Assembly: GCA_026004215.1 (NCBI GenBank)
Contig: BPIR01000001.1
Coordinates: forward strand, 1,543,860-1,607,859
Reading direction: 5' to 3'
DNA length: 64,000 nt
From: Candidatus Binatia bacterium
Lineage (GTDB): Bacteria > Desulfobacterota > Binatia > HRBIN30
Shown here: one piece after another, positions 7,742-15,697 of the stretch
How positions within the stretch are numbered: the stretch's first letter is position 1
How the letters are laid out: each line of letters begins with the position of its first letter
Program-made: the position numbers and the translations under genes
The notes under the pieces: model-generated
What the model was told of the DNA's origin: nothing
Databases searched by the model: none
What the model saw: the letters and a program-made list of their open reading frames with translations, nothing else

Positions 7742-8587
7742 CTACTCCCGAAAACGCGCCAGCCCCTGCGAGAGCACCACGTTCCCGCGCTGCGTTTCGC
7801 ACTGCACGATGGCCTCTCCGGGAGCCACACGCCACATCTTGGTGACAATCGTATCGCCAAAATACACTTGATCGGCAAAGCGAGCCTCGAAGTGCAAAAA
7901 CCGGGCAGGGTCGCCACCGCAAAGCGCACGCAAAATCGCCCGGCCCGCGAAGCCGTAGGTGCACAGCCCGTGCATGAACGGCTTCTCGAAACCCGCCATG
8001 CGCGCGAAATCCGGGTCGATGTGGATCGGATTCCGATCACCGGAAAGCCGGTAAATCGCTCCCTGTTCCGGGCGAGTGACAAGCTCCACCACTGCATCCG
8101 GCGCGCGTTCCGGTGGGCGGTTTCGGTCTTGCGTCGAAGGCCCTCGCTCACCCCCAAATCCGCCCGCTCCGCGAATGAAGAGAGTGGCCTTAGTGGTGCA
8201 AAGCAACCCATGGCCATCTTCCACAATGCCCTCGCACCCAATTACCGCTGCTTTGCCCTTGTCCCACACCTCGGCCACCCGGCCGGTGACCGTGACCTCT
8301 GCTTCCGGAGGAAGCTCGCGATGCAGGGTAATGGACTGCTCCCCGTGCAACAGCATGGCAAGGTTGATGTCCACGTGGGACACTAAACCGCCCATGGAAA
8401 ACATCCCCGGGATGACCGCATATGTAGGCAACACCTTGGGTCCCTTGCCCTCGTACACGAACTCCAGCTCACCCTCGGGCTGCGCACCTACCCCGACCGC
8501 ATAGAGCATGACGTCTTTGGAGTCCCACCGGAACTTCACCGGCGGAAAGGTTCTACCCACCAACGCACCGGAAATTGGCTCGCCCAT
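7742..8587 (-). CDS. MaoC-like (R)-specific enoyl-CoA hydratase/dehydratase, double hot-dog
   Basis: N-terminal hot-dog (RWDSKDVMLYAVGVGA) and C-terminal MaoC motif (YRLSGDRNPIHIDPDFA). Start chosen at MGEPISG. Confidence 0.8.
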   Translation of the reverse strand: MGEPISGALVGRTFPPVKFRWDSKDVMLYAVGVGAQPEGELEFVYEGKGPKVLPTYAVIPGMFSMGGLVSHVDINLAMLLHGEQSITLHRELPPEAEVTVTGRVAEVWDKGKAAVIGCEGIVEDGHGLLCTTKATLFIRGAGGFGGERGPSTQDRNRPPERAPDAVVELVTRPEQGAIYRLSGDRNPIHIDPDFARMAGFEKPFMHGLCTYGFAGRAILRALCGGDPARFLHFEARFADQVYFGDTIVTKMWRVAPGEAIVQCETQRGNVVLSQGLARFRE

Positions 8588-8782
8588 GAAGCGCCTTGTC
8601 GGCCAATTCCGCTTCCGAGTCAACCAGTCCGCCCCCCCTCGCCCCCGCAGGCGACGACTTCCGAAAAATATCTCAGATTCCTCTCGCTTTTCCGATTCCG
8701 ATGGAGTAGTCGGGTTATCAAAGTCCGCGCTTTGCCTGGGATGGTAGTGGCGAGAGGGCTGGATGGCGTTGCGGAGGGGAGC

Positions 8783-9829
8783 ATGAAAAATGTGATGCGA
8801 TCGCGATGGACGGTAGTGGGCAGCGCAATTGGCACCGGCCTGTTGATTGCCTGCACTGCCTTGGCCACGCCAGTTTCACCCTCGTCCTTGACCATTGCCC
8901 CAGGGCTCGGCTCGACACAGTGGTTCATATTCAACGACGCTGGTACGGACGGCGGCCCGTTTGGCGGGACTTGCGACGACTCGGCGGCTTTCGGGATTGA
9001 CGATGCGGACTCGGCTTCAGGCAACGACGATGCTTTCGACATAGCCTGGACGGTGTGGATCGATGGCACGGCGTTCGTGGCGCCAGCCACGGTGGATCTC
9101 ACCGGTACAACGCTGTTGGCGGGGCCGGTGACTATGTCAGGCTTGAACGTCTGGGTGCAGTACTTCTTTTCCACAACTCATCAGGCAGCCAGAATCCTGG
9201 TGATCATGCAAAACACGGGCTCGGCCCCCATCAACGCCACTGTCCAAGTACCCATCAACTTCGGTTCCGACAGCGACACGCAGGTAGAGGCTACCTCGAG
9301 CGGGGATACAACCGTGAGTACGGCGGACCGCTGGGTGGTCACTTCGGATGGCGGTATCGGTGATCCCGTCAACACGACCGTGTTTTACGGCCCAGGGAGC
9401 CCCGCTCTCACACCTTCGAGCTACACGCAAACAGTTTTCGATTGCTCCAGTACTGACGGACTCGGAGCTACGTTCGGCGCACAAATTCCCGCTGCTAGCG
9501 CTCGTGCCCTCATGTTCTTCGCCGGCTTGGGGGACATCTCCGGGACGGGCAATTCTGTTACCAACGCAGTGACCAACGCTGCTCTTTTCGACTCCGTTTC
9601 CAACCTGAGTGCGACCGACCTTCTCACCGGAGTCACCGCGGGTACGTCGGAGAGCGTGCTCGTTTTGAACTGGGAGGGCTTGTCGCTGCCGCTTCCGCAA
9701 CAGCGCCTACGCGTATCGCCGGCCCCCGCGCTGCACGACACATCGCTCTTCCTGCTCGCCGTGGTCCTGACCGGGCTAGGTGCGTGGAACTTATGGAGAG
9801 CCCGGCGGCTCAGCCGCCCGCGGGCGTGA
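8783..9829 (+). CDS. Secreted hypothetical protein with a PEP-CTERM-like C-terminal anchor
   Basis: Signal peptide MKNVMRSRWTVVGSAIGTGLLIACTALA and a Ser/Thr/Gly/Asp-rich body. The C-terminus is SPAPALHDTSLFLLAVVLTGLGAWNLWRARRLSRPRA, a proline motif plus TM helix plus Arg-rich tail resembling PEP-CTERM. Confidence 0.55.
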   Translation: MKNVMRSRWTVVGSAIGTGLLIACTALATPVSPSSLTIAPGLGSTQWFIFNDAGTDGGPFGGTCDDSAAFGIDDADSASGNDDAFDIAWTVWIDGTAFVAPATVDLTGTTLLAGPVTMSGLNVWVQYFFSTTHQAARILVIMQNTGSAPINATVQVPINFGSDSDTQVEATSSGDTTVSTADRWVVTSDGGIGDPVNTTVFYGPGSPALTPSSYTQTVFDCSSTDGLGATFGAQIPAASARALMFFAGLGDISGTGNSVTNAVTNAALFDSVSNLSATDLLTGVTAGTSESVLVLNWEGLSLPLPQQRLRVSPAPALHDTSLFLLAVVLTGLGAWNLWRARRLSRPRA

Positions 9830-9928
9830 CATCTCTCGAGCCGGCTAACTGCAGCGGCCCGAGAAAGCCGGCAACGCACATCCCCCCTGTCGCCTTCGAC
9901 CCAGCGCTCGCAGGAGTCGCTTTTGAGC

Positions 9929-13892: not shown

Positions 13893-14312
13893 TCACGCCG
13901 AACGGCGCCGTGGCCGAAACTTCGGAAGCACCACATCCTCGCGCACCTTTTCGAACACCACTTCCACCGGCATGCCGATGGTCAGTTCCTCCAGTGGGCA
14001 GTCGACAATTTGGGTATGGAGTCGAGGTCCCTCGTCGAGCTCGACGATGGCGACGTTGTACGGAGCGTCTTCGTTAAACGCGGGGTACTGGGATTGGTGG
14101 ACGACGACCCAACTAAACACTCGGCCTTTGCCCGAGAGAGATGCCCACTCGTACCCCTCGCTGGAACAGCGCGGGCAAAGAACCGCAGGCGGGAAGCGAT
14201 AGTGACCACATGCACGGCAGCGTTGCAGCCTAAGTTCGCCCCGCAACGCGGCTTCCCAAAACGGGGCTGTATCTTCGGTGCCTCGCGGCAGGGGTTTTTC
14301 CAGGGTAAACAT
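13893..14312 (-). CDS. DUF35 OB-fold/zinc-ribbon protein (thiolase-partner family)
   Basis: CRACGHYRFPPAVLCPRCSS zinc ribbon followed by an OB fold, directly downstream of the thiolase-like gene. This is the canonical DUF35 and SCP-x pairing. Confidence 0.75.
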   Translation of the reverse strand: MFTLEKPLPRGTEDTAPFWEAALRGELRLQRCRACGHYRFPPAVLCPRCSSEGYEWASLSGKGRVFSWVVVHQSQYPAFNEDAPYNVAIVELDEGPRLHTQIVDCPLEELTIGMPVEVVFEKVREDVVLPKFRPRRRSA

Positions 14313-14321
14313 CGCGTCTCC

Positions 14322-15482
14322 TCAATCGCGCCCCAAAACCAACGCGGAATAACTTACCGTTGGTGGAGACTCGTGCGGAGCTCCACCGTAACCCGTCACG
14401 AGACAAAGCTTCGCATCGGCAACCTGCCGATCGCTGCACTCGCCACGCAGTTGCCGCACGCCTTCGCGCACATGGCCAAATCCCCACAGATGCCCCTCGG
14501 AAAGCAGTCCCCCCGCTGTGTTCACGGGCAAGCGACCGCCAAAGGTAAACTCCCCCCGGGCAAAAGCTCGGTCGAGCTCCTCCGGGGCTGCAATTCCATA
14601 AGCGACAAGGTCGTTCACGACCCGAGGCGTGAATGCGTCGTACAGTTGCGCGCAGTCCAAGTCGGCCGCAACGATTCCAGCACTGGCATATGCTCGCCGC
14701 GCCGCACCTGTGCCGCCCCAGAGCTCTTGATAGTCGCCAGTGGGCACGATGACTTCCGCTCGGTGTTCCTGACCTACACCTATGATTCGAACGACTGGTT
14801 GCCGTAGGTCACGCGCTCGTTCTACGGAAGTCACCACAATGGCACCGCCACCATCGGTATTCGGGCAACAATCGAACAAACGCAACGGCTCGGCCACCCA
14901 CCGCGAGTGGAAATAGTCGTCCAACGTCATCGGTTTGCGCATCTGCGCCTCGGGGTTCCGTTGGGCGTGCGCGCGGCAGGTCACGGCCACGCGCCCGTAC
15001 AATTCGTCGGGCAAATTGTATTCGAATTGCTGGCGGCGGCGGATAAAGCCGGTAAAACAAATCGCCCCAACGTCACCGTACACCAAGTGAAACTCGGAGC
15101 CGAACAATTGCAACGGCACTCCTTGCGGCCAAGTTTGCGTACCGAAGGCGCACAGAACCACTGAGCAGTAACCGGCTTCGATGGCGGCCATCGCCACGTG
15201 CACGGCACCACAAGCAGTGGCGCCACCCATGTCCAAGGTCGTGCAAAAACTCGGATCGAGCCCCAGGTACGCGGCGACCCGAGCCGCCCAACCGTGTTGT
15301 TCTCCGATGGCCGCGGGCATTACCGCAAGAAGTCCGTCGACAGCGCGCATCTCGAGTCCGGCGTCCTCCACCGCGCGCTTGCTCGCCTCCAACGTGAAGC
15401 CCATCGCGCTCACACCCGGCACTTTACCGAAACGCGACACACCGACTCCGGCGATGGCGTATTTTCCGCAAGCCGTTCCCAT
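14322..15482 (-). CDS. Thiolase-like (SCP-x/lipid-transfer-protein type) protein
   Basis: Thiolase fold blocks (YAIAGVGVSRFGK..., MGGATACGAVHVA, NTAGGLLSEGHLWGFGHV) of the non-canonical SCP-x/Ltp class. Confidence 0.8.
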   Translation of the reverse strand: MGTACGKYAIAGVGVSRFGKVPGVSAMGFTLEASKRAVEDAGLEMRAVDGLLAVMPAAIGEQHGWAARVAAYLGLDPSFCTTLDMGGATACGAVHVAMAAIEAGYCSVVLCAFGTQTWPQGVPLQLFGSEFHLVYGDVGAICFTGFIRRRQQFEYNLPDELYGRVAVTCRAHAQRNPEAQMRKPMTLDDYFHSRWVAEPLRLFDCCPNTDGGGAIVVTSVERARDLRQPVVRIIGVGQEHRAEVIVPTGDYQELWGGTGAARRAYASAGIVAADLDCAQLYDAFTPRVVNDLVAYGIAAPEELDRAFARGEFTFGGRLPVNTAGGLLSEGHLWGFGHVREGVRQLRGECSDRQVADAKLCLVTGYGGAPHESPPTVSYSALVLGRD

Positions 15483-15697
15483 CGAACTCCCACTCCGGCC
15501 CACAATTCAATCAACTGATTAAAGCAACTGCTTGCCTGAGGGAAAGGCCCGAGTCAAGCGCCGCCCGTCCGATTCCCCAGCGCCCCATTGCCGGTCCATG
15601 GCCACCGAAGGACCGGGCCGAACCTTCCGTTTGGCTCGGCCCGACCGGCCGACATAGATGCCAATGCCGGTTCCGCCCCGCCCTTGCCGGCCCGGTA

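Follow-up and report, generated by a model that had tools for sequence, protein, structure and literature searches.

Introduction

The adenosine triphosphate (ATP)-dependent enzymes of the hydantoinase family are among the few biological routes for activating inert ketones or stable lactams, and only a handful of them have been characterised. In this article, I will discuss how these enzymes, together with the DUF35-associated aldolases that have a thiolase fold, compare with a group of neighbouring genes in a 64,000-nucleotide stretch of DNA from a Candidatus Binatia bacterium (contig BPIR01000001.1, positions 1,543,860 to 1,607,859; the whole 64-kb stretch is called the window below), where a thiolase-like gene, a DUF35 gene, hyuB and hyuA stand in one row and a MaoC-type hydratase gene lies nearby. 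The best solved relatives of both Hyu subunits are CapAB of Pseudomonas jessenii (6YRA) and an N-methylhydantoinase (7HK5), and these have the same two-subunit architecture, termed Hyd, that is marked by alpha and beta genes of about 690 and 580 amino acids with no gamma gene (PMC5214803). Every characterised member of this Hyd branch hydrolyses cyclic amides, one of them on a coenzyme A (CoA) ester (PMC5214803, PMC8453981), and the lactamase IaaC/IaaE of Aromatoleum aromaticum, likened here by description only, is the sole precedent I found for a Hyd enzyme coupled to CoA-ester degradation, in a pathway that uses a mutase and a CoA-transferase (PMC5214803, PMC8453981). The acetone and acetophenone carboxylases, AcxABC and ApcABCDE, belong to the same superfamily as HyuBA and activate an inert ketone by means of ATP and an enol phosphate; the acetophenone carboxylase operon also includes a CoA ligase (benzoylacetate-CoA ligase; PMC5214803), as do the Myxococcota-type loci described below. 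No sequence signature tells the hydrolases of this family from its carboxylases (PMC5214803).

The other half of the gene row has its own relatives. ChsH1-ChsH2-Ltp2 (6OK1) and Shy-Sal (9MYR) also combine a MaoC-type hydratase with a cysteine-less SCP-x-fold aldolase and a DUF35 protein (PMC12329534). Both aldolases carry Gly at the nucleophile position, so thiolysis is impossible; in Ltp2 the Tyr of the YDHF motif is the catalytic base and Tyr344 the acid, and in Sal the catalytic pair is Tyr302 and Cys304, within YDCY (PMC12329534). DUF35 proteins serve as scaffolds in other complexes as well, and the archaeal member of the DUF35-thiolase complexes, which show the same pairing of DUF35 with an SCP-x-type protein, scaffolds a third enzyme (PMC12329534).

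A gene pairing conserved across genomes

The genes under discussion have the following positions in the window.

14322..15482, minus strand: SCP-x/Ltp2-type thiolase-fold protein, 386 amino acids (Pfam Thiolase_C_1, E 2.9e-32)
13893..14312, minus strand: stand-alone DUF35 protein, 139 amino acids (zf-ChsH2, E 2.5e-13; OB_ChsH2_C, E 1.1e-24)
12005..13852, minus strand: HyuB-type metal subunit, 615 amino acids (Pfam Hydantoinase_B, E 2.8e-131)
9929..11983, minus strand: HyuA-type ASKHA ATP-binding subunit, 684 amino acids (Hydant_A_N, E 8.6e-49; Hydantoinase_A, E 5.1e-88; Hydant_A_C, E 4.2e-16)
8732..9829, plus strand: open reading frame (ORF) of 365 amino acids between hyuA and maoC, outside the system (nothing matched in Pfam or NCBIfam)
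7742..8587, minus strand: single-chain double-hot-dog hydratase of the MaoC/MFE-2 hydratase-2 type (MFE-2_hydrat-2_N, E 1.9e-27; MaoC_dehydratas, E 1.6e-26)

An initial annotation, made from the letters alone, had assigned the five minus-strand genes and their domains and had described the first four genes as packed with gaps of 10-40 nucleotides. Pfam matches for all five genes of interest, with domain scores far beyond chance, bear out the assignments, and the measured gaps of 9, 40 and 21 nucleotides agree with the packing. Since these gaps are so short and the starts of the four-gene set are preceded by GGAG-type ribosome-binding sites, the four genes almost certainly form one transcript. 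A scan for promoters and terminators was uninformative, with 0 promoter-like sites and no more terminator-like sites than shuffled sequence gives. The HyuB start at 13852 (615 amino acids) is preferred over a longer ORF from 13936, because the homologues have 613-616 amino acids.

To compare contexts, I took 79 loci centred on relatives of HyuB in species-representative genomes and mapped the homologues of the five window proteins that they contain; the first count below rests on the 54 loci with adequate flanks, all from distinct GTDB species; for gene calls in very GC-rich loci, only ORFs confirmed by Pfam or tblastn were used. The thiolase-like and DUF35 genes accompany hyuB in 34 of the 54 loci (26 upstream and 8 downstream), and neither is found in the other 20. 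When the HyuB tree is labelled by context, the pair is present in 13 of 15 loci of the window's own HyuB clade, the exceptions being L003 and L015, and in 14 of 19 loci of a neighbouring Binatia clade. In a clade of Myxococcota type, 8 of 13 loci have it downstream, as hyuB-hyuA-thl-duf35. The loci with neither gene fall mostly into separate paralogue clades, two of which, with 'lone' HyuB proteins, never have the pair. Anchoring the search the other way round, hyuB was found in 16 of the 22 metagenome loci of thiolase-like orthologues (at least 60% identity) where this could be determined. The initial annotation would have abandoned its proposal if the hydantoinase genes clustered with plain 5-oxoprolinases and the DUF35-thiolase association were lost in other genomes, and the association is instead kept in those 13 of 15 clade loci and in a second lineage. 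Because the pairing survives changes of flanking genes, two gene orders and divergent thiolase-like proteins (those of the Myxococcota-type lineage are only 37-41% identical to the Binatia ones), it suggests functional coupling rather than inherited synteny alone, and it probably marks a breakdown route for CoA-linked compounds that is not yet known.

The simplest contrary explanation is that the two gene pairs are functionally unrelated neighbours, carried along side by side in related genomes. The rest of the window holds no other genes of CoA metabolism, the close relatives L003 and L015 have lost the pair, six of the 22 thiolase-like/DUF35 orthologue loci have no hyuB nearby, and in some loci unrelated genes, such as a GT20 gene in L043, stand between the pair and hyuB, all of which would fit such a view. 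I consider it improbable, however, since a second lineage shows the association too, with its genes in a different order and with a divergent thiolase-like subfamily, the gaps of 9-40 nucleotides in the window indicate co-transcription, and the core is kept while the surrounding genes vary.

That no such four-gene arrangement had been characterised, as was supposed at the outset, agrees with the literature that I searched, in which DUF35 is not mentioned together with hydantoinase, oxoprolinase, caprolactamase, acetone carboxylase or acetophenone carboxylase; searches for Binatota with acetone carboxylase, or for Sterolibacterium with hydantoinase, also gave nothing relevant. Both modules come from known families, and it is the HyuB clade, the residue pattern of the predicted aldolase and the pairing itself that are uncharacterised in that literature.

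Two further groups of loci deserve description in their own right. The lone HyuB paralogues (L034, L046, L060, L061, L062, L065 and L079, each with hyuB at about position 10001) have no hyuA within 10 kb and often stand beside paired acyl-CoA dehydrogenases and an EthD-domain protein. Their genomes contain a hyuB-hyuA copy as well (L071 with L054 and L053 with L046 are examples), which suggests that one HyuA may serve two HyuB subunits. The second group comprises L139 and L140, four-gene loci that I considered as a sign of deep conservation and rejected, because a true thiolase and a HyuB-gamma fusion make them a different system. Their cluster (L139:2565-8230, L140:564-14662) encodes two flavin (FAD) oxidoreductases, a glyoxalase-like protein, a family III CoA-transferase, an SDR-family protein, a B12-dependent mutase, a true SCP-x thiolase (with its Cys, HDCF and GHP motifs) with DUF35, HyuA, and a HyuB fused to an acetone-carboxylase gamma domain; by gene content it resembles a pathway in the style of benzylsuccinate or indoleacetate degradation to which an enzyme of the carboxylase type has been joined. 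This L140 fusion protein, whose pathway is similar in style to that of IaaC/IaaE, is 25% identical to the window HyuB.

CoA-ester genes around the cluster and the MaoC hydratase

The genes that recur around the cluster in other loci are those of CoA-ester metabolism, namely hot-dog hydratases (FAS1_DH_region and MaoC), paired acyl-CoA dehydrogenases, enoyl-CoA hydratases and AMP-binding CoA ligases, so that the CoA-thioester context proposed from the window alone is upheld. Myxococcota-type operons begin with hyuB and hyuA, sometimes followed by two enoyl-CoA hydratase genes, then the thiolase-like and DUF35 genes, and after these come genes for a hydratase of the FAS1_DH type (415 amino acids), for a CoA ligase of the AMP-binding family and for a MaoC protein. 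Amidohydro_2 proteins and pairs of acyl-CoA dehydrogenases are encoded near them. Some Binatia loci encode, in this order, a CoA ligase, an SDR, a TetR, a MaoC-like protein, the thiolase-like protein, an alpha/beta hydrolase and DUF35, with hyuB close by. The recurrent neighbours in the loci examined include neither an aminotransferase gene nor any other that handles nitrogen. One Binatia sub-lineage has two intervening genes, one for an alpha/beta hydrolase between the thiolase-like gene and the DUF35 gene, and one of the UPF0047 (YjbQ-like) family between hyuB and hyuA (L045:8562-9383, L045:11752-12834, L043:17084-17503).

In the window itself, the only such neighbour is the MaoC-type protein. 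The hydratase-2 motif is [YF]-x(1,2)-[LVIG]-[STGC]-G-D-x-N-P-[LIV]-H, and the window protein carries it as YRLSGDRNPIH within a predicted double hot-dog fold, so it is predicted to be an R-specific enoyl-CoA hydratase and is the probable fifth member of the unit. Its gene is separated from hyuA by 1.34 kb, in which the plus-strand ORF 8732-9829 lies. A metagenome locus, L120, keeps the gene order of the window between about 18356 and 6317 (the two are collinear), except that window segment 8589-9942 (1.35 kb) is represented there by only about 250 nucleotides; in L120 maoC directly follows hyuA, in the same orientation, and encodes a protein with 95% amino acid identity to the window MaoC. The separation in the window is thus a local insertion, and the 365-amino-acid ORF, whose segment is missing from the otherwise collinear L120, a recent one. 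The link between MaoC and the four genes that was claimed initially is therefore real in this close relative, although a MaoC gene at this exact position is limited to the sub-lineage of the window and L120: no MaoC gene follows hyuA in the other close relatives (L089-L092 and L008), and it is hot-dog hydratases of other types that recur beside the cluster in more distant loci.

With respect to L120, the MaoC protein (L120:13807-14634) at 95% identity exceeds the adjacent proteins (thiolase-like 80%, DUF35 85%, HyuB 92%, HyuA 84% and a PAP2 protein 62%), which suggests that it is under unusually strong constraint. The product of the intervening ORF 8732-9829 has a signal-peptide-like N-terminus, and its C-terminal hydrophobic helix with an Arg-rich tail resembles a sorting signal.

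A thiolase fold without thiolase cysteines

The thiolase-like protein, which is 100% identical to a protein of the Candidatus Binatia metagenome-assembled genome (MAG) KatS3mg077, has as its best solved relatives 4U4E (E 5e-55) and the Ltp2 aldolase 6OK1 (E 5e-53). In alignments to 6OK1 and 9MYR, Gly occupies the position of the nucleophilic Cys and YDAF replaces HDCF, and neither the window protein nor any of its 61 orthologues has the nucleophilic Cys and HDCF of a true SCP-x thiolase. All 61 orthologues share the Gly and YDxF, with Ala as the third motif residue in 53 and Gly in 8. As the catalytic cysteines are absent, the protein cannot be a thiolase. Of the two activities that the initial annotation had offered, retro-aldolase and thiolase, the residues thus favour the former, and the protein is best predicted to be a retro-aldolase subunit similar to Ltp2 and Sal.

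The similarity has limits that are informative. The window protein shares with Ltp2 and Sal the Gly and the catalytic Tyr of the YDxF/Y motif, which stands at the Tyr294 position of Ltp2; in contrast, its motif is YDAF rather than YDHF or YDCY, and at the second catalytic position it has the His of the Binatia proteins where Ltp2 has Tyr and Sal has Gln. This His, at the Tyr344 position of Ltp2, is found in 60 of the 61 orthologues, the remaining one having an alignment gap, and the Cys304 position of Sal is Ala in the window protein and Ala, or Gly in 8 cases, in the orthologues. The second catalytic residue of either aldolase is accordingly missing from the window protein, whereas the Myxococcota-type thiolase-like proteins that are linked to hyuBA have, besides the Gly and the YDxF Tyr, the second Ltp2 Tyr in 13 of 14 cases.

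The DUF35 partner has a canonical C-x2-C-x10-C-x2-C zinc ribbon, and its gene is the one that begins 9 nucleotides downstream of the thiolase-like gene. Its matches among solved structures are the Sal partner 9MYR_B (E 6e-26), the DUF35 part of ChsH2, 6OK1_B (E 3e-25), and the DUF35 protein of the archaeal thiolase/HMG-CoA synthase complex, 6ESQ_E (E 3e-22). A DUF35 partner and an associated MaoC-type hydratase, both typical of the Ltp2 and Sal systems, are thus present, but unlike in ChsH2 the DUF35 is a separate protein and not a domain of the hydratase, no steroid-degradation genes are nearby, and the steroid systems are not known to have a link to HyuBA. On sequence, MaoC, the thiolase-fold protein and DUF35 make up a hydratase-aldolase set like ChsH/Ltp2, whose residue pattern, YDAF plus His, is new. 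The DUF35-thiolase complexes differ in that they keep the thiolase cysteines, and they show lower similarity (E 2e-24 and 2e-21). A reading as a mevalonate-pathway thiolase/HMG-CoA synthase/DUF35 complex was ruled out, as the window has no HMG-CoA synthase and the protein no catalytic Cys.

HyuB and HyuA among the hydantoinases

The HyuB proteins form a compact and isolated group. Their clade is 70-94% identical across Binatia and Myxococcota-type MAGs, the close relatives all coming from Binatia, 'bacterium HR30', or MAGs labelled Deltaproteobacteria/Myxococcota, and in a search of 1.8 billion cluster representatives all of these proteins fall into one cluster, with the next full-length relatives at 46-48% identity and the bulk of the family at 31-36%. 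The window protein is 32% identical to CapB, 32% to N-methylhydantoinase, 25% to Apc, 21% to Acx and 30-35% to fused oxoprolinase-like forms, so the clade matches no characterised member by sequence. In a neighbour-joining tree of 48 HyuB sequences, which is distance-based, carries no support values and includes no characterised bacterial OplAB, the clade sits on a long stem inside the lactamase/hydantoinase (Hyd) branch. By gene number, subunit length and phylogeny alike, HyuBA is classed here as a two-subunit Hyd enzyme. A tblastn search against plasmids gave only relatives of at most 34% identity, none of them from the HyuB clade, and no cultured host emerged.

The 46-48% identical sister clade contains many proteins of 722-756 amino acids with a C-terminal SCP2 domain (scores of 25.6 and 23.3 bits, above the Pfam cut-off of 21.3; examples are P0243, P0423, P0426 and P0432), encoded in the order hyuA-hyuB in loci L144-L147, with no thiolase-like or DUF35 neighbours; this lipid-binding domain points to lipophilic substrates for the sister clade.

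The catalytic features of both subunits appear complete. HyuA, which among solved structures matches CapA best (6YRA_A, E 3.5e-133) and the subunits of acetophenone and acetone carboxylase less well, has intact ATP motifs (DVGGTFTDF, DMGGTS and DPGP, compared with those in PMC8453981). In HyuB the metal tetrad E67/H126/D129/H151, invariant in 16 homologues, corresponds to D41/H99/D102/H124 of CapB (PMC8453981). The system shares with CapAB the B-then-A gene order (capB-capA), the ATP motifs and, in the metal site, the His-Asp-His part (PMC8453981), and differs from it in the Glu ligand, the pocket and the genomic context. The first ligand, Glu67, is the residue found in acetone carboxylase (Glu89), whereas CapB, N-methylhydantoinase and Apc have Asp; it is the only carboxylase feature that is shared. 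Eight CapB pocket residues and the vicinal disulfide differ in HyuB: CapB L38, I62, T336, M339, I368 and V386 become Q64, Q88, H362, G365, T395 and S412, so that polar residues (Q64, Q88, H362, T395, S412 and T415) occupy positions of the hydrophobic pocket, and the disulfide C410-C411 aligns to V434-S435. HyuB has two vicinal Cys pairs of its own, C347-C348 and C384-C385, which are invariant in 16 of 16 aligned homologues and absent from caprolactamase.

From these data it could be argued that HyuBA is an ATP-dependent lactamase or cyclic-amide hydrolase that opens a ring in a CoA ester or its precursor, after which the hydratase and aldolase would degrade the chain. HyuB lies inside the Hyd branch together with CapB, N-methylhydantoinase and the fused oxoprolinase-like proteins, the best profile matches are CapA and CapB, the two subunits have Hyd lengths and no gamma partner, and the known members of the branch, as outlined above, all act on cyclic amides; the 2-oxoindoleacetyl-CoA gamma-lactamase of anaerobic indoleacetate degradation offers a precedent (PMC5214803). 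However, aminotransferase, deaminase and amine dehydrogenase genes are absent from the conserved neighbourhoods, the CapB pocket is not kept and is more polar in HyuB, the scores of 618.6 bits (HyuA) and 298.4 bits (HyuB) stay far below the caprolactamase equivalog cut-offs of 1000 bits (NCBIfam), and Glu, not Asp, is the first metal ligand. I regard this as a serious alternative, if on balance a rather unlikely one.

A more mundane possibility is that HyuBA is an ordinary 5-oxoprolinase that recycles pyroglutamate and that the thiolase-like protein and DUF35 form an ordinary lipid-transfer-type thiolase, in line with the automatic annotations (N-methylhydantoinase B/oxoprolinase and acetyl-CoA acetyltransferase) and with the presence of fused oxoprolinase-like proteins in the same broad branch. 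It appears very improbable, given that both catalytic cysteines are missing from the thiolase-like protein, that HyuB belongs to an isolated clade (no more than 48% identity to any outsider, and 30-35% to the fused forms), and that several HyuB paralogues occur per genome in CoA-ester gene contexts.

A candidate route for CoA-linked carboxylic acids

Now considering these lines together, I tentatively favour the reading that the products of the four genes, with MaoC as an associated fifth, act one after another in a single catabolic route, by which a carboxylic acid would be broken down as its CoA thioester. I infer the substrate, the order of the steps and the chemistry at HyuB from residues and families, as follows. 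The MaoC protein, judging from its hydratase-2 motif, would add water to an enoyl-CoA; the thiolase-fold protein, held by DUF35 as in ChsH2-Ltp2 and Shy-Sal, would then cleave the resulting 3-hydroxyacyl-CoA in a retro-aldol reaction, as its residues suggest, to give a short acyl-CoA and a free carbonyl compound; and HyuA, by analogy with its family, would use ATP to phosphorylate the oxygen of an inert carbonyl, with the HyuB metal site completing the reaction. For this carbonyl I would favour the ketone that the aldolase sets free; its carboxylation, of the kind that acetone and acetophenone carboxylases carry out, would give a beta-keto acid. A nearly equal alternative for this third step would be that a lactam or cyclic amide is hydrolysed. 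The ketone variant has a slight advantage by pathway logic, in that an aldolase releases a ketone or aldehyde, a CoA ligase belongs to the same operon in Myxococcota-type loci, nitrogen-handling genes are lacking and Glu is the metal ligand; homology favours the lactam variant, and the two stand close together.

Several observations weigh against this proposed route. HyuB scores best with CapB (248 bits) and N-methylhydantoinase (246 bits; 7HK5) as opposed to 118 bits for Apc and 77 for Acx, and HyuA scores 449 bits with its nearest lactamase/hydantoinase relative versus 355 and 322 for carboxylases. Apc beta, Acx alpha and the L140 HyuB-gamma fusion all lie outside the Hyd branch of the tree, the acetophenone carboxylase models give 126-371 bits against cut-offs of 1250-1500 (NCBIfam), and the operon has no gamma subunit (Acetone_carb_G), nor the alpha-prime and epsilon subunits, while its 684 and 615 amino acids fit the two-subunit Hyd type and HyuB is shorter than the corresponding subunits of Acx and Apc with their 684-776 amino acids. 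The 'novel carboxylase' of the initial annotation thus finds no support in homology, with HyuB and HyuA in the lactamase/hydantoinase branch and the gamma subunit lacking, and a carboxylase reading rests on pathway logic. In addition, CoA ligase and acyl-CoA dehydrogenase genes are absent from the window, the His at the Tyr344 position is only a putative general acid, the six thiolase-like/DUF35 loci without hyuB must be reckoned with, and hyuA is not always adjacent, at least 7 loci having thl-duf35-hyuB without it.

Another reading is a closer association, in which DUF35 as a scaffold would join the thiolase-fold protein to HyuB and HyuA and couple ATP-driven enol-phosphate formation to C-C chemistry on an acyl-CoA. 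The thl-duf35-hyuB row is the most constant core, even where hyuA is elsewhere; HyuB is 70-94% identical as compared with 56-71% for the thiolase-like proteins (79-80% in the window's closest relatives), which would suit a subunit that fits several partners; DUF35 scaffolds other complexes, such as that of thiolase with HMG-CoA synthase in archaea (PMC12329534); and the carboxylase relatives bind a small Zn-ribbon gamma subunit (PMC5214803), DUF35 likewise being a C4 Zn ribbon. However, among the 150 best cluster representatives no fusion of HyuB with DUF35 or thiolase was found, the long representatives giving only partial HyuA-HyuB fusions and SCP2 fusions, and consecutive pathway steps explain the adjacency of the genes equally well, so that I hold such a joint complex to be quite improbable. 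Its most specific form, in which a DUF35-tethered complex would convert a ketone to its enol phosphate and then carry out an ATP-driven aldol/Claisen-type condensation or cleavage with an acyl-CoA, is a long shot, and if true this would be a reaction class that is undescribed for either family.

Implications

The HyuB clade is represented by more than 550 matching stretches in species-representative genomes, stands sharply apart from all studied members of its family and is tied by conserved gene order to CoA-ester enzymes. If its substrate were identified, the family would gain a new reaction, or failing that a new class of substrate. A HyuBA route of the kind proposed would explain part of the hydrocarbon and lipid degradation that is predicted for uncultured Binatia and Myxococcota-type bacteria, and the enzyme could provide a useful biocatalyst. 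Similarly, the cysteine-less thiolase-fold proteins of the Ltp2/Sal type would be extended beyond the steroid degraders.

Other genes of the window

Directly upstream of the operon, at 15698-18598 on the minus strand, lies a gene for a probable secreted protein of 966 amino acids with Laminin_G_3, EF-hand-like and SdrD_B-like segments, which is kept at the same position in the close relatives L090, L092 and L120. On the other side, a PAP2 phosphatase gene (7025-7741, minus strand) abuts the stop codon of maoC on the same strand and is faced by a gene for a TauE/SafE-type exporter (6077-7006, plus strand), both being collinear in L120. Further off in the window, a gene for a UbiA prenyltransferase comes after one for a cytochrome P450 (47141-49484, minus strand), and positions 1067-3829 on the plus strand encode a 920-amino-acid protein with teneurin-like TTR and FN-plug domains and a dockerin-like segment.

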